Shown piece by piece: positions 4,984-64,000 of a stretch of 64,000 nt of DNA (position 1 is the first letter of the stretch; every line of letters starts with the position of its first letter). A program made the position numbers and the translations under genes. The stretch is from NCBI GenBank assembly GCA_020629795.1, contig JAHDCR010000001.1, positions 88,443-152,442 on the forward strand, given 5' to 3'. The notes under the pieces were generated by a model. The model saw only the letters and a program-made list of their open reading frames with translations, was not told the origin of the DNA and did not search any database. Source of the DNA: Candidatus Altimarinota bacterium. GTDB lineage: Bacteria > Patescibacteriota > Gracilibacteria > BD1-5 > UBA6164.

Positions 4984-5052
4984 TTTTTAAATGCTAAGTC
5001 TTCCCATAAATACTAGCAAAAAAGCTTTCTTTTGCAAATTTTTTCATATAAT

Positions 5053-7767
5053 ATGAACACTTTAAAAGAAAGAAAATTATCCACTAAATCAAGAAAATAC
5101 GTGATAGAATCAATCATCAATAGCATATTTGGAGATGCTGACAGCAAAAAAATAAAAAAATACGAAAAAGACCTCGAAAAAATCAGAGATCTAGAACAAA
5201 AATTTTCATCTATGACTCTCGAAGATATACAAGCTAGAAATATGGAAATTATTTCTAGTTTTAAAGATTTAGATCTAGATACTCAGGATTGAAGCAAGGC
5301 AATCAAAGAGTGACTTGAAAGTATAAAACACGAAGCTGGGGCTCTCTGGCTCAGAGCATGTAGCCTCATATCAGGCATAGATCATGAGTTAGAAAATGGA
5401 AAAACTCTTCACTGGAATATGCTGCCGTATGATGTACAAATTATTGGTGGTCTCGCACTTCACGATAGTAATATAGCTGAAATGAAAACCTGAGAATGAA
5501 AAACTCTCGTGGCTACATTTGCAGCCTATCTTAACGCGCTTTCATGATTTTCTGTACATATCGTAACAGTAAATGATTATCTTGCTCAGCGTGACGCAAT
5601 GGAAATGTGAGTACTCTATAATGCTCTTGGTCTCTCTGTTTGAGTCGTTTCTCATAATCAAGATAGAACGGTAAAAAAAGAAGCTTACAACAAAAATATA
5701 GTTTACGCAACCAATAACGAGCTCTGATTTGACTACCTGAGAGACAATATGGCTGTTGAGGCTAAAAATATGGTTATGGGAAAAAGATTTTTTGCTATTA
5801 TTGATGAAGTTGACTCTATTCTCATCGATGAAGCAAGAACTCCTCTTATCATCTCAATGCCTGATAACGAACCAACTCAAAAATACATTACATTTGCCTC
5901 TTACGCTCAAAAACTCCAATCAGGAACCCACTATAAAATTGATGAAAAGGCAAAAACATCTACCCTCACAGATGCAGGTATTAAAAAGATTGAAGAAATG
6001 CTATGAGTCGAAAATATCTATGCATCTGACAGATATAATGATATTCATCATATAGAAAATGCGCTGAGAGCACAAAGTGTATATATTCGGGACAAGGACT
6101 ACATCGTAAATGGTGAGGAAGTTATGATCGTAGATGAGCATACAGGGAGAGCTCTCGCAGGAAGACGTTACTCTGATGGACTTCATCAAGCTCTTGAAGC
6201 AAAGGAAGGAGTGAAAATCCAACAAGAGTCTAAAACTCTTGCGAGTATTACCTTTCAAAATTATTTCAGGATGTACTGGAAACTCGCTGGTATGACAGGT
6301 ACTGCAAAAACAGAAGAAGAAGAGTTTTACAAAGTATACAGTCTTGAAACTCTTGTTATTCCAACTAATAGACCAATAGCGAGAGAAGATAAAGCTGATC
6401 TCCTGTTTAAAAATGAAAAAGGAAAATTTGAATATGTCGTTGAATATATTAAGGATTTGCATAAGTCAGGGCAACCTATTCTTGTAGGGACAGTATCAGT
6501 TGAAAAATCTGAGTATTTATCTCAAAGACTTACTCAGGCAAATATCCCTCACAATGTACTTAATGCAAAACAACATGAGCGAGAAGCTGAAATTGTAGGG
6601 GCAGCTGGGCAGAAATGAGCTGTTACAATCGCAACTAATATGGCCGGTCGTGGTACTGATATTAAACTTGGTGAATGAGTGAAAGACTTAGGTGGTCTTA
6701 TTATCCTTGGAACAGAAAAACACGAAACTCGTCGTATAGATAACCAGCTTCGTGGTCGTGCTGGTCGTCAAGGTGATCCAGGTATGACACAATTCCTCAT
6801 TTCTCCAAATGATGATATTATGCGAATATTTGGTGGTGATAAACTCTTTGGAGTATTTAATTCTCCGATGTTTGCAGCGCTACCTGATAATGAGCCTTTG
6901 ACACAGAGCTCTATGCTCACCCGAAAAGTTACTGGTGTTCAAAAACAAGTAGAATGACATCATTTTGATAGCCGAAAGCATGTCCTAGAATATGATGACG
7001 TTATCAATAAACACAGAGAAATTATATATGCTCGCAGAAATACTCTCCTGACTCAAAGTGATGATTGGGAAGTACTTGAAAAACGCATCAAGGATACGGT
7101 CTATAATAAAATTAGATCATTGGTTATGACTCTCGAAGCAAAATGAGGAAAAGACGCTCAAAAATCTAATATAGTGGAAAGTGTCCATAACTATCTATGA
7201 AGAAACATTATAGATGATTTACTCGAAAAAGAAGACATATCTGGAATTATAGGAAGCAGTGTATTAGCTGATTATATAGCGGATAGAGCTGTAGCTGAGA
7301 TAGATATATTAAAATCTGAAGCTCCAAGTGAGAATGCATTTCATGAACTGGTAAAACGAATTATGCTTCAAGCAATTGATAGACTTTGGATGAATCATAT
7401 CGACGGTATGAGCAAACTCAGAGAACAAGTAGCATTTGTATGATACGCGCAAAAACAACCACTTATGGTCTATAAGGAAAAAGCATTTGATAAATTTCAT
7501 GATTTGCTTTCTGAAATAGAGCTTAAAACGGTAAAGGCTGTTTTTTCTATCAACCCAAATACGCAGATTAAAATTCAAAGAATTGATGATTCAAAATTAG
7601 AAGTACAATCTACTGATATTGAAAATATGAAATCCGCTCCAAACACTACACAAACACCATCCCCAGCTAACTTAAATCAACCTAGCCCAAAGGTAAACCC
7701 TCTATTCAATCAACCTCAAAAAGGCTTTCGACAAGCTCCAAGTAAAAAAAAGAAAATTAGAGTTTAA
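5053..7767 (+). CDS. secA: Preprotein translocase ATPase SecA
   Basis: Five track fragments in one frame joined by TGA. Motifs: MKTGEGKTLVA (both Gly are TGA, 5491-5499), [52 protein letters not shown] 5053. Confidence 0.95.
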
Positions 7768-7773
7768 AAAATA

Positions 7774-7807
7774 AAAAGTTCGACCTTATGTCGAACTTTT
7801 TATTTTT
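7774..7807. terminator. Bidirectional rho-independent terminator
   Basis: AAAAGTTCGACcttatGTCGAACTTTT flanked by an A-run and a T-run, between convergent secA and 7806-8201. Confidence 0.75.
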
Positions 7808-8201
7808 AAAATGTCATATTATTCGGATCTAATTCTTCTATACCCTCGTCTTCTTCATTGGTATTTAGTTCTTGGTACACCAATACTGATAATTCAGCTA
7901 AAGTATTAGCAAAATCAATTCAAATTCATAATCTTTCAGATAAAAAATCCTGAAATGTTCATTCACTTAATGCATGATAATCTTCAAGCAATGAATTAAT
8001 TCATCATGCATTTTTAGTTATTCTTTTACCATGAGCAGACGCTTCATCATAAAACGATTCCTCATCTATTTTATCTGGTATAATAAGTAATTTATCAGCT
8101 GTTCCTCTCGTATCCCTTAAAAGTTTTGGTGTAGTACTCTTAACATCAAATTCCTCTGGAAGTTCGTCTCAAATTGGAAAAAAAAATTTGCTTCGACTCA
8201 T
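7806..8201 (-). CDS. Hypothetical protein (131 aa)
   Basis: ATG 8199-8201 to TAA 7806-7808 with no TAA/TAG. Seven in-frame TGA codons. No motif recognised. Confidence 0.5.
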
Positions 8202-8360: not shown

Positions 8361-11252
8361 ATGTCAGCACCATTTGACCCAACAAAATTCAATCTTGATC
8401 CAGATTCTGAGGAAACACCAAAACAACAAGCATCTAAAATTAGCTCTTCTGATGATATTTTATGAAGTATACAAGTTCCAAAAACTCCTGTAGACTCTTC
8501 AACTGTCAAAAAGACTTGAACAGAAGTACCCCCTGCACCTAAAACTGGAGATATACTTGATACCATTAATACTCCAAAACAGCCAGAAACAATAGATATC
8601 AAGGCAAGTAACGAAAAAAAACAGGTAAATAGCTTGCCATTAGAAGAAAAGCAACTATCGGAAAAGGAAATCAAAACAGAAGCAAAGATTCCTGAGAGTA
8701 CACAAAAAGTAATAGATATAAATATTGCTTCTCTAGAAGACATTGTAACTCTCGTATCAGAAAAAGAATATGAATATGTTCTTATAGAGCCTCAAGATAC
8801 GCAGGTAAAAATCACATTTCGACAAGATAATATTGATAAAGACATTCGTTATGTGAAATTCCCAGTTTATACGAGCATATTATTTAAAATCAAACAGCTT
8901 ACTGGTTTGACTGTAGAAGATACGGTAAGTAGCCAAGAATGAAAAGGAACTCTTAAAATTTGAAGCAAGACTTTCAAGATAGCAAGTAAAACTGCCTCAG
9001 GAGAAAACGGAGAAAAAATTTGGCTCAAATCTACACAAGAACAAGCTGAAAAATGAAAAAAACAAGTAAAAAAGACTCCTCTTTCTACAATATTTGGATT
9101 CCTGTGAGCAATACTTTTTGTTTCACTGGTACTATGAAGCGCTTTTATTACATTCATAGTAATGAACGCGAGTGATGTCCAAGATGTACAGTTTTTTATA
9201 GACTTGTGAATCAATATAAATGATGTGAATACTTTTATTCGAAAGGTAGTAAATATCATATTTTCGATATTACTTTTTATAACAAGTGTAGCTCTCTCGT
9301 TTGCACTGTTTAAGTTTTTTATTACAAAAAAAACGCTTAAAAGAAAAAAGGTAACATACTGACTTCTCTCTACCTTCTTACTTATTATAACTTTTGCAAT
9401 TGGTATTTCATGGATGGCTATTGATCAAAAAATTAAAGCTCTTCCAAACTGGCAAGAAAAAATATACGGAAACCTTAAAATTTTCGATAATGATCTCCTT
9501 ATTAGTGAAGATTTTCAAGAAGGTCAAGCTATCTTAACTCAAACCCAAGACCTTGTTTGACCAGTAACACTTAAGTTTGACTTAGAAAACTATCAAAATA
9601 GCCAAGCAAAAAAATGAATTGAGATAAATAAGTACATATGGAGTTTCTGAAATGAAGAAATTGAAACATTTACACCGACCATAACAAAATTATTTTCAGA
9701 CAAGTGAAACTATGAAATATTTGTTACTACTCTTGGAACTGATATTAACGGTGAAGAAATAGAGCAAGAAATCTCAAACATCCCTGCTGTATCGGTATCA
9801 CATATTGTAGAAATTACAGAAGAAACGACTACAAATGGGAGAAAGAGATTAGAGCTGGACGCAAGTGATTTAGAAAATCTTTGAAAAATTAAGTGGTATT
9901 TTAAAACACCTGCCACATCAGAAAACTATGAAGTACCATATCCTGAGTGGACTCATGAGGATGGAGCTGAATGATATACATTTTTCCCAAGGAGATTATT
10001 CGAAAGTGATGTATTTGTATGAGTTTCCATTATAAACGGATCAACAGTAGATGAAACTATAAATAAGGTATTTGTTATAGCTGCAGATAAAGCATCAGAA
10101 ATATCTGGAGAGATACAATTTACGCAATCTCTCGAGAATGAACTTAGTTTTAATTTTAGCGTTGCAGATCCTAGTACATGATTCGCAAATGGTTTTATTG
10201 ATAGTTTTGAATGGACCATAGAAAATAAAACCTATTCTAGTCAGGCTGAGATTTGAGAAAGTGAAACTTCCCCTATTATAAAACATGTATTTAAAAACTA
10301 CTGAGAGCAAGAAGTTTCAGTGAAACTGACTGATTCGACTGGAAAATCAGAAACAATAACAAAGACTATAACTATCCAGAAAAAAGTTGAACTCATAGCA
10401 TGACTCTTTATTACAGATATGCAATGAGATGAGTTAGAAGGTATTATTTATGATGATAAAACAAATGAATACTTTATAGATGACATCGGTATACCAATTG
10501 AGCTAAAGCTCGATACAAAGTATGTAAAACCAGTAAATAGACTCTACTCACTCAAAAGCGTGACTTGGGATGCTAAAAATGATGGAAATATAGATGGAAA
10601 TGAAAAAACATATTCATGGGATATACCAACAGAATGAACTCATAATCTCGTGGTTGAATATACTTTTCAACATATTAAAAATACTGAGGATCAAATTACA
10701 TTAAAGGAATTTATCAGTGTTTTATGAGTCAAAAAAGAAGCTATACTAGACTTACAATTAGAGTATGCATCAAACTATGCTCCTGTGGTAGTAAGATTTG
10801 ATGCATCGAAAAGTTTTATTAAAAACGATGATATTATTAAATTTATTTATGACTATGGAAATGGTGTAGTAGAAGAAAGAGATGCCATCAATCCATGACA
10901 TAGATATAGAGAGGCTTGAGATTATACTATTAAACTCACGGTCGTTGGAGAAAGCTGAAAAAGATACTCTATGGAGAAAGATCTTATACTCCTCCCACCT
11001 GCTCAAGAGATTAGTATCAGTCCGAGTCTGAAAAGAGCTCCTATTGGACAATGAATAGATTTTTCATCTGCTGAAAGTGCCGGTCAAATAGTAGAGTATT
11101 TCTGGGATTTTGGAGATGGAAATATTTCAACTGCTGCAAATCCAACTCATAGCTTTAAAAAAGCTGGTACCTACACCGTCAAACTTCAAGCTGACTTTGC
11201 CAACAGTAATATTAAAGAAGATGTAGTTGAAATAGAAATCTACGAAGAATAA
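8361..11252 (+). CDS. Membrane protein: PilB/GspE-like N-domain, TM segments and PKD-like repeats
   Basis: 963 aa. EYVLIEPQDTQVKITFRQDN...ILFKIKQLTGL...SSQEGKGTLKIG...GENGEKIWLK resembles the N-half of T2SS/T4P ATPases, but no Walker A is present. Three hydrophobic helices follow. C-terminus has FWDFGDGNISTAANPTHSFKKAGTYTVKLQA (PKD signature). Confidence 0.7.
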
Positions 11253-11257
11253 ATTTT

Positions 11258-11285
11258 AAAAGCTCTCAGTATCCTGAGAGCTTTT
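11258..11285. terminator. Bidirectional rho-independent terminator
   Basis: AAAAGCTCTCAGtatcCTGAGAGCTTTT between convergent genes. Confidence 0.75.
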
Positions 11286-11292
11286 AAAATTA

Positions 11293-16912: not shown

Positions 16913-17794
16913 TTATTGTAGTACGGTAAAGTCAAAGGCAGAGCTTGTAGCTTGTTGAGGAATAAACACTTCAAGTGTTTTAGAAAATTGGTAAGATTTT
17001 CATTTAGATATTACTAATGGATTTGGATATGGAACTGATTTTGAAGTCTCAAATCTATATTCTAAATATGGAATAATTGCATCTCCTGAATCACTTTTAA
17101 GAGGCCTTATAATTGCAGCTTTCAAAACACACTGGGTTGTAGTATTTTGACATCATAATTCTTCGAAGTAATTCCTAAAACGTAGAGGAATTCAAGGAGA
17201 TAATTCGTCTCTTCAAGTTAAATCTACTCACACTTGGTTAAAAATATCTATCACCCCAGCTCTCACATCTGACTCTGTAATTAATGCCCCAGAAGCTGAA
17301 CTCAATGATCATCCATCACCAGAAAGTTGTAATAAAATTATTTCATCATTATATGGGTTATCAAAATCAACACCATTTGGAACCTGCAAAAATAAATCAA
17401 TAGTCTCCCCTGAAATATCAAATTTACCATTTCATATTTCTAAACTGATTGGCTCACTTTGAGAAAATCTAGAATAATTTGCATCATTTGGAGCATTTCA
17501 TTGTCACGGTGCAGGAATATAAGTTCAACTACCTGTAAAATTATACTCATAGTCTTGAACATCTCAAAATGACTTACTGTAATCACTTCACAGTGCTCCG
17601 TCATACACCTTCAGAACACTTTCCTCTACTCAAGCATAACTTTCATAAAATGCTTGCGAAGCGTTTTCTATTCATTTCACACTTCTAGAAAAAGGCACCA
17701 TATATTCCATAAGGTAGAGTCAAATCATACTTAAAAGTAAGACTATTCCCATAGCTAAAATAATAGAAAATCCTGCATTTGTAGTGTGTTTCAT
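16913..17794 (-). CDS. Pilin-like protein (minor pseudopilin, lacks Glu5)
   Basis: MKHTTNAGFSIILAMGIVLLLSMIGLYLMEY has a prepilin-like hydrophobic N-terminus without E at +5. Checked codon by codon over 293 aa with no TAA/TAG. Confidence 0.5.
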
Positions 17795-17798
17795 ACTC

Positions 17799-18932
17799 TT
17801 ACTTAATATCTAAATTTGATAAACTTATTGTAGTTGCAATCTTAACACTTGGAGCTGTCCCTTTAATTTTTGCTTTTACAGATAAACTTGGCTCTATAGT
17901 GTACTTCACTTGTAAATAAGGAGCAACTAATATATTGGGATTAGGATCCTTCCATGATAGATTTAAATCTTTTTGCGGATAGGCATATATTTCAAAATCT
18001 TTAATATTTATACTCGATGGGAATATTGGCTGCCAATAGTTATTCGAGTTTGATCACGCAACTATTGTGTCATCTCATGAGGCATAATCAGGATGTATGA
18101 ACCAGGTGTCGATGAGTCAATCTCATTGACTCCCATCTGTATCAACTGTTCATAGAACATGATCTAGTCCATAATCTACTCAAACTAATTTTAGCATTTC
18201 AATGGTTCCATTACATCCTATACCAGTAGGATTATCAGTATTTAATCATATACAACTCGCTCCTGCCGGTGCAAAGTTTGAAGCAGAAACATCACTCACA
18301 TTCCATCTGAAATAGGTTCTCTCTTTTCCGTCATTGCTTATTAGATATAGTTCTCAAACCTTATTAGGATCTGCATCTCATGAAAAAGCATTCGGACCAA
18401 TTCATAAGAATAAATCATCATCATCTCATATAATTCCATTAACCCCATCTTCATCTCACCCATCAGCGTCTCCATCACTATTTCTATCAATAAATTGTAA
18501 CTCGTACTGACCAAATCTTTGATGTGTATCTGTAAAATTAGTGCTGAGATCGTTCATATATCCGGGAGAATTATTCAGACAACCTCATGTTCACATCTCT
18601 TGTCATAATCAAACTCAGCTTATACAGTTATATATAGTTCATTGATTTCAAAATCAACTAATACTGGAAAAATGTCCATCGATAAATCCAGTACCATAAC
18701 TATATCTATTCCAATATTCTTCGTAATCTAAAGTTCCTCATTTTTTGATGAGTTCAAAAAATCTTTCAGATGAAAAATATGCTTGCTTCTCTATTTCTGA
18801 TTGTTCAATAAGTTTTACTTTTGCTATTCATACAGAACTTAGAGATTGAAAAGCAGCAATCATAATAATTGAAACAATTAAGATTCATACCAGTATTTCG
18901 ATAAGAGAAAATCATGTATTTGAAGTTTTCAT
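17799..18932 (-). CDS. Type IV pilin-like protein with prepilin cleavage/methylation motif
   Basis: MKTSNTG/FSLIEILVGILIVSIIM, with the cleavage-site Gly written TGA at 18912-18914. Asp-rich DRNSDGDADGGDEDGVNGIIGDDDD. 377 aa; all in-frame codons checked for stops. Confidence 0.8.
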
Positions 18933-37331: not shown

Positions 37332-40300
37332 CTACTTAACCACTAAATTCACAATCTTCCCTGGAACGTAAATTTCTTTTACAAGTGTTTTCCCTTCGAG
37401 CCATTTAGCAACTGATTCATTAGCTTTTGCTTTTTCTAGCACTGAGTCTTTATCCTCTCCTACTGCTATAGTAATTTCTCCTCTGAGTTTTCCAAGTACT
37501 TGTACTCAGATAGTAATCTCATTGTCTACCGTCATAGTGTCATCATATTCTGGCCAAGATGTAAAGAATATAGAATTTCCTTGATATCCAAAAAGCTCTG
37601 CAAATGCTTCTAATTGTCATCCAAACTCTACAAAATAATCTTCTTCAGTTGCTTCATGATGTCTTTTTCCTGTATATTTAGACACGTAAAGACTATTCAT
37701 TGGGAAATATGGATTTAATTCACCTTTTTTAATATCTGTAAGAGTATATTCTCGTCTATATTCAAGAGTTTTCACTTCTCCATTTGGATAGAGAATAGCC
37801 CATGAATCTATATAATGATAATCTAATTTTCCTCCAGCCTGGGATGCTTTTTCCTGGTAGTATGTTATCATGAGTTCAGCTATTTCTTCCTGAGTACACT
37901 CTGATTCTTTTTTTCCTGCAAGTTCAAGTGCTGTTCTTTTGACCTTTGTAGGTTCAAAATCAAAATCTGCATCTCCAAAGTGAATAGATGTATCTGTTGC
38001 TACAATTGGAGCATCAATATCTTTTCATTTATAGACTTCAATCTTTTGAAGCACACATTCAAGTGAAGTTTTCCCTGTTTCTTCTACATCTATAATATCT
38101 GAATATTTTTCTATAATTGCATCTGGATTTAGTCTAGTAAATATTTTTTGAGCCCTCTCTAATTTTGCAGCATTTCCTGTAGCAAAATATACTTTGTCAT
38201 AAGTCTCTCAACTCCCTCACCTCTGAATCTCTTCTCCCTTGGAGGAGAGGGTAGCTTCATTCACCATTTCCCAGCACTCTTCTGCCATATGTGGAGCAAA
38301 TGGATGAAGCAGCTGAATAAATGTTCGTTTCCACTCAATATTTTTCTGTTCATCAACTGGTTCTCCAGTATTGAGAAGAATCATCATTTGAGCAATTGCT
38401 GTATTAAACTTGTAGTTTTCTATATCTTCCTGTATTTTTTTAATCGTTTTGTGAAGTGTCTTCATTGCCTGCTCATCAGATTTTGCTGGTCTCGGATTTT
38501 CTCAGCTCATCATTGCGTAGAACTTATCTAGAAATCTCTTCACCCCAACAATACTACTCGTATCCCACGGTGCTGCATCCTTGAAATCAGCCATATACAT
38601 CTCGTACATTCTGAGCGTATCAGCTCCGTACTGCTCTACTATATCATCTGGATTTATAACGTTTTTCAGTGATTTAGACATCTTTGCTGGAATTTTTTCC
38701 AGCTCTTCACCCGTTTCTATATCAAAGTATTTCCCATCTTTTTCTTCCATCATATCATTCGCAATGAGTCTGCCTGCTGAGTTTCTATAACTCATACCAA
38801 GAATCATCCCTTGATTTCTGAGTCTATAAAATGGTTCTGAAGTAGAAACTACTCCAATGTCATAGAGGAATTTATGCCAGAAACGTGCATACAGTAGGTG
38901 AAGCACTGCGTGTTCTGCACCACCAACATAGCTATCAACCTGTCACCAATATTTTTCCACTTCACTTCATACCAGTGAGTCAGAATTGTTATTATCCATA
39001 AATCTGAGATAGTACCAACATGACCCACCCCACTGTGGCATCGTGTTTGTTTCTCTCTTTCATGCTAGATTGACAGCAAGCTGCACGTTTACAAACTCGT
39101 CCACTTTTGTAAGTGGTGAAGTTCCGTCTCAAGCTGGCTCGTAGGCATCTACTTCTGGAAGTTTCAGTGGTAGCTCGTAATCACATACTATCTTCCCATA
39201 AATACCGTCATAGATTTTAGAAAATTCTTTCTCCCCAATCATCAGCATATCACCATCTCGAACCCAGGCATCATCGCTTGGACTCGTAGGGAGTTGCGCT
39301 ATATCTGCTGCGTCTAAATGTATGAGTGGTATTGGTTCTCCCCAGTATCTTTGTCTACTAAAGAGCCAATCTCTGAGCTTATAATTCGTTGTCTTGTGAC
39401 CAAATCATTTTTCTTCTGCTAAATCTGTAAACTTCTCTTTTGCCTCCTGTGAAGTAAGTCCGTTAAATTCTCCTGAGTTAACAAGTTTTCCATATTCTGT
39501 TGTGGCTCTTTGTCATTCTTGAAATACACTCCAAGCACTTAAATGCGCTTGCCAAGTAATTAAATTAGATACCTCCTCTTTTTCAACCCAGACTCCTGAA
39601 TGATGTCATTCATCTATTTCAGATTGAATTCTTGAATCACTTTTTAACTTAGCGTAAAAAAATCTTCACCACGTTCTCTGATTTTTTTGTTTTGTATGTC
39701 TGAAGCCTTGAGAATAGAAATATGTTCACTCAATATCTCAAATAATTTCTATATCATCATATCATGATTCTTCTACCACCTCTTTTAATACAGTCTCTAG
39801 TTCAGAATCTCATTCCTCTATACCTCATCAAATGAAATGGTAATCTTTCGGCTCATTTTCTTCAATAACAAATATTTCTCCTGCATCATTTTCTAAAATC
39901 ACATCAATCACTTGTCTATTTAGAGTTTCAACTCACTCTCTTTCAGCAGAAACTCAAGTATGAATGTTATTTTTTGCTATACTCTGCTTCACTTTTAAAT
40001 CATACTTTTTTGCAAATTCAAAGTCTCGCTCGTCGTGGGCAGGGACAGCCATAACAGCTCCTGTACCGTAAGAACCAAGGACATAGTCAGCTATCCAGAG
40101 AGGAACTTGTTCCCCGTTGTATGGATTGATGACATAACTCCCGGTAAAAACTCCGGTTTTTTCTTTGTCATCTGCAGTTCTATCTTGGTCAGATTGTTTT
40201 CCAGCTTTTGAAATATATGCTTCACATGCCTGTTTTTCACTCTCAGCAATAAAGTCTGCAACATCTGGATGATCTGGAGCAATTACTGCGTAAGTCATAC

Positions 40301-41060
40301 CAAAAACAGTGTCTACTCTCGTAGTGTACACTCTGATAGATTTCGTGTCATCATCTGATTTTTTGAGTTCAAACTCACATCCCTGAGATTTACCTATCCA
40401 GTTTCGTTGCATATCTTTAATACCCTCTGGCCAATCAAGGTCATCAACATCGTTTAAAAGTCTCTCAGCGTATTTTGTAATTGCGAGAACCCATTGTCTT
40501 ATTTTCTTCTTTTCTACCTGTGTTCCACATCTCTCACAGCTAAAGTCACCGAGTACTTCTTCATTTGCAAGACCTGTTTTACATGATGGACAATAGTTAA
40601 TTGGGAGATCTTGCTCATAAGCTAGCCCCTTTTCAAAGAGTTTCAAAAATATCCACTGTGTCCATTTGAAATACTCAGGATCTGTTGTGTCTATTTCTCT
40701 CTCCCAGTCATAAGAAAATCCAAGAGACTGGATTTGCCTCTTAAATGTAGCAATATTTTCATCTGTCGTGATGCGAGGATGAGTCCCTGTTTTGATCGCA
40801 TAGTTTTCAGCAGGAAGACCAAAAGCATCCCAGCCCATAGGATGAAGTACATTATATCATTTTGCGTGTTTATAACGAGCTACAATATCATTGGCTGTCA
40901 TTCCTTCAGGATGTCCAACATGGAGTCCAGCTCCCGATGGATACGGAAACATATCCAGACAGTAGTATTTAGGCTTAAGAGAAGTATTACTCGTCTTAAA
41001 AGTATTATTTCGCATCCAATAGTCTTGCCATTTTTTTTCTATTTCTTGGTGATTGTACAT
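37332..41060 (-). CDS. leuS: Leucyl-tRNA synthetase with two large in-frame domain insertions (1242 aa)
   Basis: Five track fragments share one frame and are joined by [15 protein letters not shown] (HIGH), CP1 editing domain, [45 protein letters not shown] (KMSKS), C-terminal [14 protein letters not shown]...[13 protein letters not shown] stop 37332-37334. Confidence 0.9.
37578..38261 (-). other. Ham1/ITPase-like domain inserted in the LeuRS C-terminal region
   Basis: About 228 extra aa between [15 protein letters not shown] and [54 protein letters not shown] follow the RdgB/Ham1 pattern (ATGNxxK, EETG, DDSGL). Confidence 0.6.
38214..38255. repeat. CT/GA-rich hairpin element inside leuS (copy A)
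   Basis: CCCTCACCTCTGAATCTCTTCTCCCTTGGAGGAGAGGGTAGC, with stem CTCTTCTCC/GGAGGAGAG. Shares CCCTC..CTCTGAATCTC with the intergenic copy at 46476-46520. Confidence 0.55.
39498..39953 (-). other. Nudix-hydrolase-like domain inserted after the LeuRS CP1 editing domain
   Basis: About 150 extra aa between ...[14 protein letters not shown] and [14 protein letters not shown]. Nudix-box-like [23 protein letters not shown] (39759-39830; the consensus E and R are replaced by D and K). Confidence 0.65.
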
Positions 41061-44085: not shown

Positions 44086-44112
44086 TTGTATTTATCACTT
44101 CGGTGCTATAAT
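44086..44112 (+). promoter_or_regulatory. Candidate promoter of the major pilin gene
   Basis: TTGTAT-N15-TATAAT with TGC (extended -10) immediately upstream of the -10. Confidence 0.45.
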
Positions 44113-44148
44113 AAACGGGTATTTAATTTATATATTTACATTACTATT

Positions 44149-44724
44149 ATGATGACAAGTCTTAAAAAAGGGTTTACCCTCATAGAGCTCCTCGTAGTTA
44201 TTACTATTATTGGTATACTTGCTACTGGTGCTGTTCAAACATTTACATCTCAAATCCAAAAAGCACGAGATACTACTAGAGTTTCAGATATTACAGCGCT
44301 GAGAGGTGGATTAGAACAGTTTTACCAAGATGGTGGTGAATACCCAGATAAAGGAACTGCATTCTCAGGAGTTACACTCTACGTTCCAAAACTTCCTACA
44401 GATCCAAAATCTGAACAATCTAGTGGAACTTCAACATTTGAATATGCATATAATGTATCAGCTGATAGCAACTCTATAGATAACCAAGAGTTTGAAATAT
44501 CTGCTCACTTTGAGAATGGAGCAAATACAACAGCCAAAGCTGGAACTGATGGTGGAGATGATCCAGTTAGACTCGAGTTTTGAATTGATGTAAATGATAC
44601 TACTGAGAAACCTACGGTAATAGCATGAGAAGATACTACAGCTGACCTATACGAATGTGTTACTCCATCTGGTTGAGCATGAGCAGATTGTGATGAAGAG
44701 GACAATCCTATGATTATTAAGTAA
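44149..44724 (+). CDS. Type IV major pilin
   Basis: MMTSLKKG/FTLIELLVVITIIGILA (class III signal, Glu5). C-terminal Cys pair CVTPSGGAGADC. Reads through three TGA codons to TAA 44722-44724. Confidence 0.85.
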
Positions 44725-60834: not shown

Positions 60835-61025
60835 AAAAATAAGGTTTGTATATAGATTTGTTAGATTGTAATTATAAAGATATTTTCTGTATTTCAAGCA
60901 GATATTAGTATAAATATGTATTTAAAGACAAAAACAATATTCTGTCAATATATTTATATAGTCAATAGAAAAAGAATATGTTATTTTTAATGTATATATT
61001 TTATTTTGCAAGAGCATGCTTTTCA

Positions 61026-64000
61026 ATGAACCCTCAAGGCAATCCCACATGAGCTGAACAAAACAACTGAGCTGATAAAACTCAGGACACTATAGTATTA
61101 TATGAAAAGGCAGAAAAAATTGCAGATCTAATTGGAACAGAAGAAGCGAAGCAACATTTGAAAGAGTTGAAACAAGTGACAATATCTAAGCTCCATGACC
61201 TCCAACTAGAAACAAGTAATAATCTTCATGATTTACAATGAGATATTGATTTTTCAATAGGAACAATAAATGAGACTGAATTTACAGATATAGAAGATGA
61301 GTATGCTGATGTAGAGGAATTACTTGAGAACCTACCAACTCCTGATGTTCCTGAAGAATTATCATGAATATCTAACACTGATTTTTCTAATCTTAGTACA
61401 GACGAAGCACAAAGAATCTTAAGCTTTCTGACTGATTGATATCTCTCATATCCTGAAAGTTCATGGTGACCTGCATCTTACACTAATACTCTTAGCGAAG
61501 CTAACTCTCAAGAAGATATTCGTGTAGCTCAACAAATACTTATAGATAAAATTCATGGTGAAGGTACTTTTCAGCGATGATATACCAATGATGGAATGGT
61601 TCTCTGATATTCATGAGTTGAATGAGGTAATTTTTTAAAATCACAAGAAGACTTTGAAAATCAATTAATATCTGGAGAAGTATTTAATGCATTAATGTTT
61701 GCTAATTATATAAGCTATTTAAAATCTCAAAATGGTGGAGATATTACTTCTGCATTTGAATATGTCATTGAAAACTCTGGTGATAGAATGGATAGAATTG
61801 AAGCCTTTATTTGAGAAAGTAATAACGAAAATGTTTCTCTTATAAAAAATGAGCTCATAGCAGCAGAGCTATTTTCTCCTGAAGAATGATTTATCGGAGC
61901 ATGATTTGAAAGTATTAAACGAAAATGATTTGAGCTACTTACTTCTGGAATTCTATGATTCAATGAATTAGTTGTTGATAGTGGTGAAAACATAGCTAGT
62001 GTTTTAGTAGGGATTCAAGAAACATTAGACTGAAGTATACTATGATTTAGTATTTCCAGTATCATTTGAGAAAATACTGTGAGACAGATCAAAGATATGT
62101 TGGATAGTGCTAGAGAGAAGTGTAGTGCTGAGAACATAAATACTTGATGTTTCATCATGTCAGATTTCATCCATGATATATGAGAAAACCTAGTTCCAGA
62201 TGCGTTTAGATGAAATATATTTGAACAGGCTCATAATGAATGAGTAAAAGTGCTCATTAAAAAAATGATTGAAACAAAAGAGGTAGCTGTCTCTTACAAT
62301 TCTAATAAATGATACGAGGTTAAAAGTCTTTCAGAATTTGAATCGATAGTTAGAAATGATCCAAAATATATACAACAAGAAACACATAAGACAGAGGTAT
62401 GAACCTACCTCTGCGGGCTCTATAGAAGATGAGAAAAATTTACACCAGAATATTTAACATCTGTTTTTTGAGAAACAAATCTCTTCTCTATACTCTCTGA
62501 TTTTAAAAACTGAGATTTTGAGTGAGAATCATTTGATGGTGTTAGTTGGGATGAATTCTATTCCCCATACTTAGCAGGTTTTGATGTGGCAATGCAATGA
62601 AATATTAGAGACACTATTGAGCAATCAAATCCAACTCAAATTAATGCTGTTATCCAAGGTGGAGAATGAAAAGAAGATACAATATCTACTCTAGCATCAT
62701 GTCCATTATGTAAAAGAATAGATGAATACGATAATCTTACTGATATTACCATAGCACTTCAATCTCCTGAACTTCAAGAGGCTCAGCCAGATTTTTATGC
62801 CGGACTTGAAAATAAAAAAGAAGTACTAGAACTTGAACATGCAGATATAACTTTGGAATTAACGCAGTGGGTACAAACTGAACTTTGAGAAGATATACCC
62901 GAAGGATTACAATTAAAGATATCTGAAACTTCAACAGCAACCTTAGAGCACTTAAGAGATTATTTATCTCGAAATCCAAATGAAGTTTGTAGTATTGATT
63001 TAAAAACTTTTCTTGCGACATCACCAGAATCTCCATTTTTAGAACTGACATCGTACATAGTGAATAACTATCGTACTCAAGTAGATATGGAAGGTTTATA
63101 TGAGACAATAGATAACACTGTAAATATTTGATTTACATCTCAAATACAATGAATCAATAACAATATATCTTTAGCTGAAAATAGAGTTGAAACACTTAGA
63201 TTAATACCTGAAAACGAAAGAACAGAAAGTATTCTCAATGAAATAAATACTCTTGAAAACTCAATTATTGAATGGCAGGAGGATGAACAAGTGTTACAGA
63301 CAGTACAACAAAGAGCTAGTGAAATAGAAACCTCTGACATTGCCAATCTTAACCAAGAGCAACTACTGAGAGTAAAGGAACTAATGTTAGATTGAAATAT
63401 TTCTTGGCCCGAAGCATACAACGCTACTATTTGAAGACAAGAAGATTTCTCAATTGATGAAGTTTTTAATTACTATGAAAAGAACAGATCAGATATTCGA
63501 TTCATCAAAGACACTGATATACTTACTAGTTTTTTACGAAGAATAAACGAAGAAAATAACTCTAGGAGGCCAGACGATGAGAAGATAGATAAGATTGATA
63601 TATCCGATATACATCCGAGTATGCGTTCTGACCCTATAATACTAAAAGAATTACAGAATCTTACTCTTTCAGATATAAATCTTATACCTGAAAGTTACTT
63701 TAGTGCTTCTTGAAATCATGATTTATATATAAACTTAATGGTTTTATTTAAAGCAACAAAAAATTATGCTGGAAATAATATCGAAAAACTTATACTCACA
63801 AAAGTAAACCGGATAAATATATCTTCTACTGACAAATTAGGAGCTATAACCATAATTTCTGATTTATTAAAAAGTTGAAGTGAATTAGTTGATAAAGATA
63901 AAATAATTCAATCACTTCCAACTGATATATTTGAATATGATCACAGCTGAATACTCGATGCATATAAAGATCAAATTCAAGTTCCTGTATTTACGGCAGA
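61026..64000 (+). CDS. Giant hypothetical protein, N-terminal 991 codons (runs off the window)
   Basis: Frame from ATG 61026 has no TAA/TAG to the window end but has frequent TGA, so no plus-strand fragment appears in the track. No signal peptide and no domain recognised. Confidence 0.6.

Follow-up and report, generated by a model that had tools for sequence, protein, structure and literature searches.

An N2 domain of assembly-ATPase type joined to three transmembrane helices and a PKD-ended outer region in a Gracilibacteria protein family

The window analysed here comprises 64,000 nucleotides from a Candidatus Altimarinota bacterium of the Gracilibacteria (assembly GCA_020629795.1, contig JAHDCR010000001.1, positions 88,443 to 152,442 of the forward strand), and one of its genes, at 8361..11252, encodes a protein of 963 amino acids with an unusual layout. 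Its cytoplasmic part holds a domain homologous to the N2 domain of pilus and secretion assembly ATPases such as PilB and GspE, which is followed by three transmembrane (TM) helices and a long outer region ending in PKD domains. The protein is real and conserved, and constitutes a new arrangement of known domains. The gene and its parts are as follows, in window positions.

8361..11252 (+), whole gene: 963 codons plus a TAA stop under genetic code 25, in which its 27 TGA codons specify Gly
8361..8708 (+), cytoplasmic tail, residues 1-116: disorder predicted, with many K, S, P, T and E residues, of varying length
8361..8399 (+), conserved N-terminal peptide MSAPFDPTKFNLD: putative short linear motif, from the consensus of relatives
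8709..9044 (+), N2-like domain, residues 117-228: alpha-beta3-alpha-beta3, homologous to N2 of PilB, GspE, PilF and BfpD
9045..9074 (+), Lys-rich linker, residues 229-238: predicted local distance difference test (pLDDT) below 50 at 229-238
9075..9173 (+), TM helix 1: 239-271 by hydropathy, model helix 241-269, running in to out
9174..9230 (+), outer loop, conserved and containing a short helix: consensus NAxxVxDVxFFxxLGINLNDINxF
9231..9329 (+), TM helix 2: 291-323 by hydropathy and 286-321 in the model, directed from outside to inside
9330..9347 (+), basic cytoplasmic turn within FITKKTLKRKKVTY: K323 and K324 invariant
9348..9428 (+), TM helix 3: 330-356 by hydropathy and 327-359 in the model, directed from inside to outside
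9429..10754 (+), outer region, residues 357-798: four beta-rich domains at about 365-462, 466-560, 569-672 and 678-791
10755..10994 (+), PKD domain, residues 799-878: this piece matches PKD_4 at E=1.4e-9
10995..11249 (+), C-terminal PKD domain, residues 879-963: PKD_4 at E=9.9e-15

Searched as a single sequence, the window protein matched the T2SSE family profile PF00437 at E=0.029 and 13.5 bits (residues 125-229 on profile positions 12-116 of 370), below the gathering cut-off of 24.9 bits, and the GspE model of NCBIfam at E=2e-5. A single-sequence search of the PDB returned five matches, all GspE or PilB, with E values of 0.5-1.1. An initial sequence-only reading of this DNA had likened the region to the N-terminal half of GspE and PilB and suggested a profile search; the lone sequence stayed under the threshold, and the signal became clear when relatives were pooled. 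PF00437 was matched at E<=0.01 by 23 of 45 relatives (best 3.4e-6), and PilB or GspE chains made up eight of the nine PDB matches of an eight-row profile (best E=0.0071). With a 31-row profile, every row of which was translated from DNA with code 25, the top 12 of 15 PDB matches were GspE, PilB or PilF, all aligning to N2, with a best E value of 4.1e-6. The same profile matched genuine T2SSE ATPases among 1.84 billion representative proteins (E down to 6e-20) and PilB-sized frames across the 301 genomes of the class that formed our distribution sample (E of 1e-6 to 1e-10 per genome).

Structural comparison pointed to the same domain. An AlphaFold2 model of residues 110-375 had a pLDDT of 85.6, and all of its Foldseek rows listed at E<=1e-3 (16 of 26) were PilF, PilB, EpsE, GspE or BfpD (best E=1.8e-7), with PilT ranked lower. 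When model residues 119-232 were superposed on N2 chains with VIA-align, as had been proposed for PilB and GspE, Z scores of 12.5-16.4 and root-mean-square deviations (rmsd) of 1.8-3.0 A were obtained over 100-110 residues. An N2 sub-profile scored 34-40 bits on the three PilB-like proteins of the genome and no more than 1.1 bits on its three PilT-like proteins, and the N2 copy is therefore of the assembly-ATPase type. The cytoplasmic domain is an assembly-ATPase-type N2 domain; the suspected resemblance thus holds for N2 specifically, and similarity to the ATPase N-domain is present both in profiles and in structure.

Nothing of the motor core accompanies this domain. The Walker A string [AG]x4GK[ST] was not found anywhere in the 963-amino-acid protein, no match to PF00437 reached past profile position 116-117 of 370, and the TM helices follow the N2 domain after a ten-residue linker; the absence of a Walker A/B core had been noted correctly from the letters. 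To see which residues are retained, 31 N2 domains of the family were aligned with 29 PilB-like N2 domains from the genomes of the same family. Common to both groups are E-P, F-(R/K)-x-D, I173, K178, L183, Q-x-G, P213, G-E-K and a basic residue at 223, among them the fold-defining residues EP, F-R/K-x-D, K178, Q-x-G and P-x3-GEK. The S-D-x-H of the PilB set is replaced by D-[FY]-x-x in the focal family, R152 by T, S or N, and D206 by variable residues, and there are new invariants in a D-I-N strand ahead of the first helix, Y137, Y170 and K210. Column 208 is Arg in 29/29 PilB-like domains and L, A or I in the focal family (0/31 Arg), whilst column 223, at a spacing of 15 residues, is Arg in 29/29 and Lys in 29/31, respectively. 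From this spacing and the ranges of the VIA alignments, columns 208 and 223 probably correspond to R271 and R286 of the PilB of G. metallireducens. McCallum et al. describe these as universally conserved arginine fingers, which reach over the interface between subunits to bind the phosphates of the nucleotide and the glutamate of the Asp box (PMC5424180).

Since one of two universal arginine fingers has been lost in 31/31 relatives, the domain is non-catalytic; with S-D-x-H lost as well and no ATPase core, the N2 copy is unable to hydrolyse ATP and is a binding module, a conserved derivative. The protein does not belong to the T2SSE ATPase family, since it has no core, lacks one arginine finger and scores below the Pfam cut-off.

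The three hydrophobic helices proposed from the sequence were recovered by hydropathy and by the AlphaFold2 model at the positions listed above. Flanking charges amount to five K+R and two D+E at residues 225-240, two K+R and four D+E in the first loop, and six K+R and no D+E at residues 320-333, so that by the positive-inside rule the N-terminal 238 residues are cytoplasmic and residues 357-963 outside (three TM helices, N-in/C-out). The outer loop contains many invariant residues, including A270, D275, V276, F279 and N290, and a model helix at 273-281. No signal peptide and no cysteine were found in the protein. Against family profiles the TM region gave weak, sub-threshold matches alone (BrkB, DUF6768, MSC_0882), and T2SSF, PilM, PilN, PilO and GspL were absent among the Pfam and NCBIfam matches of the protein at E<=10. 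The only two pilin-type rows, T4SS_pilin (E=8.5) and a conjugal pilin-like NCBIfam model (E=2.9), fall together with a PamR match over the TM helices or a beta-sandwich stretch. The PamR match, to the Candidate Phyla Radiation (CPR) Pam pilus, had an E value of 0.0017 and 17 bits against a cut-off of 300, covered 29 beta-sandwich residues and was rejected; the Pam system is chaperone-usher-like and unrelated (PMC13278184).

In the full-length AlphaFold2 model (45-row alignment, mean pLDDT 78.2) the all-beta outer part consists of six domains. The first four are beta-rich with pLDDT of 70-90 (model and DSSP); the third of them carries a weak PKD match at about 622-669 (E=1.8e-4 in the 611-710 piece), and VIA rows over 482-675 and 579-962 are tandem Ig/FnIII-like arrays with Z of about 9-10. 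The predicted external region does end in PKD repeats: the whole protein matched PKD_4 at E=1.5e-33, the cut-offs of PF18911 and PF00801 were exceeded (115.1 bits vs 27 and 97.7 bits vs 23.5), and PKD was matched in 45/45 relatives. The last domain superposed on the PKD domains of collagenase ColG with Z of 14.7-15.0, rmsd of 1.3-1.6 A and 34-36% identity (VIA).

At the other end of the protein, residues 1-115 are disordered in the full-length model (pLDDT about 30), and the tail has a mean pairwise identity of 0.25 and a gap fraction of 0.26 in the 45-member alignment. Its first residues have the consensus M-S-x-P-F-D-P-S-K-L-N-L-D, which includes FDPSKLNLD; the strict expression FDP[ST]K[LF][NDS]L matches 27/45 relatives, and with looser FDP..L.[LI]D variants the motif is present in about 38/45 (counted by eye). 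The disordered tail is otherwise variable, but [DE][IL]L motifs recur. This pattern suggests that the N-terminal peptide and the [DE][IL]L motifs may be short linear binding motifs.

The reading frame depends on the genetic code. Under table 11 the frame 8361-11252(+) contains many in-frame stops; under table 25 each of the 27 is a TGA that encodes Gly, and the frame is a single open reading frame (ORF) of 963 amino acids. The sequence-only reading had reported this ORF, and all the peptides that it quoted could be located (residues 122-224, 241-267, 299-317, 335-354, 853-866 and 914-944), though it did not state that the frame is open solely under code 25. Long ORFs tile the whole window solely under that code, and they encode housekeeping proteins (SecA, TyrRS, RecA, PheT, DnaK, LeuRS and Suf proteins). 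TGA is the most frequent Gly codon of the gene (27/56), and the gene carries in-frame TGA at conserved Gly positions, as is expected of the code-25 organisms SR1 and Gracilibacteria; the named database relatives carry the title Candidatus Gracilibacteria. In the 45-member alignment, the conserved TGA positions coincide with G or, among database proteins, with W, and we infer that this W stems from code-4 gene calls. No tRNA genes were found within the 64-kb window.

Public copies of the family are frequently truncated, many fragments stopping at profile position 84, the site of the G194 TGA. Together with the sub-threshold PF00437 score of the protein itself, these truncations could be taken to mean that the N2 domain is an inert relic of an old fusion, or that the ORF is an artefact joining two genes, as an internal stop on resequencing would have indicated. 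The evidence contradicts both versions, which we regard as highly improbable. The ORF is full length in database relatives and in 20/20 genomes of its own GTDB family, and many metagenome proteins are 35-97% identical to it. The gene's 31-mers are present in full in sequencing runs from two studies, none of the runs so listed being an RNA run; small contigs of another sample cover 26/30 bins of the gene with zero differences and zero indels, and a variant gene in a third study has substitutions and no indels. Code-11 gene calling would explain the fragments that stop at position 84. The structure models are confident, and N2 is gap-free in the 45-member alignment, its mean pairwise identity (0.44) equalling that of the first outer domains (0.44 and 0.40) and standing well above that of the tail; the TM region with the outer loop reaches 0.55 and the terminal PKD pair 0.60. 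Being gap-free, conserved like the outer domains and present in 20/20 family genomes, the N2 domain is evidently under selection, as judged from these alignments. The W-for-TGA copies and fragments in public databases hide the architecture of the family from routine annotation.

The nearest 120 database relatives are of 600-1050 amino acids, most spanning 86-100% of the query; the named ones are called 'PKD domain-containing protein' or 'PKD repeat protein', and one 'hypothetical protein'. A metagenome scan added 8 further loci. In a representative library, 50 proteins were matched at E<=1e-30, the full N2 plus TM matches being proteins of 847-1034 amino acids or fragments thereof. Within the distribution sample, N2 and TM regions were matched in 20/20 other genomes of the window's GTDB family, whilst the TM part alone was matched in 16/16 genomes of a sister family of the same order. 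Profile matches outside these two families fall on N2 positions, almost all in PilB-sized open frames. A stand-alone N2 match in a third family (G089) proved to be a normal 418-amino-acid PilB within a pilus operon, and matches of roughly 1000 amino acids with two N2 stretches were set aside as tandem double ATPases of another layout. These tandem double assembly ATPases (P0216, P0241, P0248, P0257 and P0268; 994-1018 amino acids) have two PF00437 stretches in one chain, with an MshEN domain in four of the five and none listed for P0257.

The window protein thus falls within an unnamed Gracilibacteria family of three-TM-helix PKD proteins, defined by the conserved TM helices, an NAxxVxDVxFF..LGINLNDIN loop, an LPNWQE exit motif and a PKD-ended stalk. 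Sister-family members are of about 700-790 amino acids (L118-L126, L013; P0198, P0235) and have a homologous TM region, matched by sub-profile at E values of 1e-20 to 1e-27 in nine ORFs and at 2.6e-9 in the more distant L013. The nine ORFs share the first outer domain motif, and all of these proteins end in PKD domains. A sub-profile search found no N2 domain in the sister-family ORFs (best E 0.58 with filters off), and N2 thus marks a lineage-specific difference between families that share an older protein with three TM helices and PKD domains; it represents either a gain in one family or a loss in the other. In contrast to the focal family, the sister genes do not adjoin secA; in the five loci read, the upstream gene is an ORF of 406-453 amino acids with no Pfam match, at the following positions.

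L126: 2-1219 (+), sister-family upstream ORF
L121: 2110-3357 (-), sister-family upstream ORF
L124: 2045-3388 (-), sister-family upstream ORF
L123: 1-1359 (+), sister-family upstream ORF
L118: 2110-3384 (-), sister-family upstream ORF

The translations from L126, L121 and L124 are those of a single-pass membrane protein with a long acidic tail and repeated [IL]PDWLK-type motifs.

The surroundings of the focal gene in the window are as follows.

5032..7767 (+), secA, the conserved upstream neighbour, with Pfam SecA domains
about 7773-7805, hairpin with a T-run 3' of secA, read from the sequence
7806-8201 (-), acidic ORF of 131 codons, 6 of them TGA, located between secA and the focal gene and matching no Pfam family
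11252..11291 (no strand assigned), bidirectional terminator-like hairpin of 18 pairs, shared with the convergent tyrS
16913-17794 (-), pilin-like gene
17799-18932 (-), pilin-like gene
44086-44724 (+), pilin-like gene

The ORF at 7806-8201(-) looks like a lineage-specific insertion, as most relatives have a gap of about 74-164 nt between secA and the gene. Promoter-like sites showed no excess, with 23 found vs 18.0 +/- 4.6 in shuffled sequence. Two of the three pilin-like genes have an N-terminal methylation motif (E=1.7e-5 and 7.3e-9), and the third has a similar hydrophobic N-terminus and no Pfam match; the pair at 16913-18932(-) is very rich in TGA-encoded Gly, with 15 and 24 such codons. 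Elsewhere in the window, a LeuRS of 1242 amino acids (37332-41060, -) contains a NUDIX domain (382-506) and a Ham1-like domain (957-1028), and an open frame of more than 1007 amino acids (60978-63998, +), which runs off the window, has 38 TGA codons and no Pfam family at E<=0.001.

The packing of N2 in assembly ATPases offers a starting point for the function of the tethered copy. According to two structural papers, the N2 domain of a chain and the neighbouring chain's ATPase domain are packed together as a rigid unit, with about 1,600 A2 buried, and the motor turns its N2 side towards the membrane, the side from which PilC is believed to enter the pore (PMC5424180, PMC6145873). As N2 packs on a neighbouring ATPase domain and faces the membrane, a tethered N2 would be best placed to bind a PilB-type core or its platform. 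The explanation that we tentatively prefer, with rather less than even confidence, is that the protein serves as an adhesin-like anchor at the cell surface, with its cytoplasmic N2 domain docked on the pilus motor. The tethered N2 would dock on a PilB-type ATPase, or on the platform engaged by the ATPase, and the pilus motor would thereby be positioned or regulated beside a surface adhesion array. Host contact outside could in this way be coupled to pilus activity inside, the outer PKD stalk most likely binding a ligand of the host cell or of the envelope. Three PilB-like and three PilT-like ATPases, as well as pilins, are encoded in the genome, pilB, pilC and pilT being located away from the focal gene. 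A split ATPase, in which an orphan core would use the focal N2, was considered and discarded, as the genome's three shorter PF00437 matches turned out to be ordinary PilT-like proteins that possess N-terminal domains of their own.

Several observations weigh against docking on the motor. In the loci examined the gene was never found beside pilB, pilC or pilM, its conserved neighbours being secA and tyrS, so that the linkage looked for in the synteny check with these pilus genes did not appear. The earlier remark that several pilins are encoded nearby holds insofar as pilin-like genes lie in the window, but there is no pilus operon or adjacency: the nearest are 5.6 kb off on the other strand, with six unrelated genes and tyrS between. 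In a closed PilB hexamer, every surface that binds N2 is already taken by the ring's own subunits, and docking would therefore call for monomeric PilB, an open ring or displacement. Counts of PilB-like genes do not differ between genomes with the N2 fusion (2-4 in 13 family genomes) and genomes without it (2-5 in 5 sister-family genomes); an extra PilB paralogue in the fusion genomes was sought among these full-length matches and none was seen. PKD domains are generic and do not prove adhesion, and as the sister orthologues work without N2, the domain is accessory to the core role of the protein.

The gene order and the residue pattern bring in the main rival, a possibility to be taken seriously, in which the N2 fold, unconnected with pili, has been recruited for binding or oligomerisation in the cytoplasm more generally. 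The protein may then be a component of the envelope or of a surface array, such as a host-adhesion or cell-wall-spanning anchor, and it is about equally conceivable that the N-terminal peptide, the tail motifs and N2 bind some other factor, possibly one linked to Sec export given the adjacency to secA. Among loci with at least 1 kb of upstream sequence (L097-L099 left out as duplicates), secA lies directly upstream on the same strand in 20/29, mostly 74-164 nt away, and a convergent tyrS lies downstream in 7/11 loci with downstream sequence. L093 and L094 are near-identical and all of these loci come from one family; they are therefore not independent, and the gene order may reflect inheritance and not function. 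The hairpin after secA and the gene's own upstream region in the window mean that co-transcription is not required, and the sister-family orthologues do not share the adjacency. Co-option would fit the lack of pilus genes in the neighbourhood, the existence of orthologues without N2 and the location of the strongest conservation in the TM region and outer loop, not in N2. It would likewise fit the replacement of PilB-invariant surface residues (S-D-x-H, R152, D206 and R208) and the rise of new invariants in the DIN strand, Y137, Y170 and K210. Set against this, the known partners of N2 are the ATPase core and the pilus platform only.

Docking on the motor, if it does occur, could also take an inhibitory form, which we think unlikely. 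The tethered N2 would replace that of a true subunit on a PilB core, acting as a decoy that makes a dead interface, and PilB would be kept inactive at the membrane until released, for instance when host contact is sensed by the outer stalk; the latter step is equally doubtful. That the N2 is of PilB type would suit such a brake, as would the replacement of the finger column by L, A or I in 31/31 relatives while the GEK, QxG and K178 core is kept, given the role of the fingers in gamma-phosphate sensing described in PMC5424180. The second finger, however, is conservatively Lys in 29/31, which makes a dead interface uncertain, and the idea shares the objections to docking, such as the lack of linkage to pilus genes. 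Of a similarly low probability is the notion that the protein takes part in the type IV pilus motor as a pseudo-subunit, with its finger-less tethered N2 inserting into or capping the PilB ring. Force on the stalk, or a ligand signal, might then conceivably pass through the conserved three-helix bundle to switch the motor, though this too we hold to be improbable. If true, such a pseudo-subunit would be a direct outside-in clutch between host contact and pilus extension or retraction in an episymbiotic bacterium.

Returning to the motor-docking anchor, its parts can be compared with known systems. The N2 domains of PilB, PilF, GspE, EpsE and BfpD (the first ~116 positions of PF00437) have the same fold and detectable sequence homology, and share with the focal domain the motifs EP, F-R/K-x-D, K178, Q-x-G and P-x3-G-E-K. 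Unlike these proteins, the focal N2 lacks the ATPase core, Walker A, Asp box and His box, as well as one arginine finger and S-D-x-H; three TM helices and an outer stalk are attached to it, and in front of it a disordered tail replaces N1/MshEN. The last outer domain resembles the PKD domains of ColG/ColH, archaeal S-layer proteins and PrtV (Z 12.4-15, rmsd 1.2-1.7 A, up to 37% identity); those proteins, in contrast, are secreted or form S-layers, and are not polytopic with a motor-derived cytoplasmic domain.

GspL and PilM-PilN offer an analogy of function, as membrane proteins that link a cytoplasmic ATPase to parts beyond the membrane; GspL, which has one TM helix, contacts the ATPase by way of an actin-like domain. 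No relation of sequence or fold to these proteins was found, and the cytoplasmic module of the focal protein is itself a piece of the ATPase. The GspE-GspL complex 4pht was among the PDB and Foldseek matches of the focal N2.

To our knowledge, N2 domains are known only within PilT-like ATPases, the hexameric motors of pili, type II secretion and archaeal flagella. The sequence-only reading had not recognised the layout from characterised type II secretion or type IV pilus systems. Full-text searches, and papers on the structure of PilB and PilF, the CPR Pam pilus, Vampirococcus and Gracilibacteria from groundwater, likewise yielded no description of an architecture joining N2, three TM helices and PKD domains. 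A stand-alone, conserved, membrane-tethered N2 with a surface stalk would be the first instance of this piece of the motor serving as a separate adaptor, and even if N2 is unrelated to pili, it would still be a clean exaptation of a motor domain. The lineages with and without N2 form a natural comparison and hence a ready-made test. Pili are thought to be central to the lifestyle of Gracilibacteria, as stated in PMC8080830 and PMC11452946, and the protein would be a concrete candidate for how these ultra-small, host-dependent bacteria may link their surface contact apparatus to pili.

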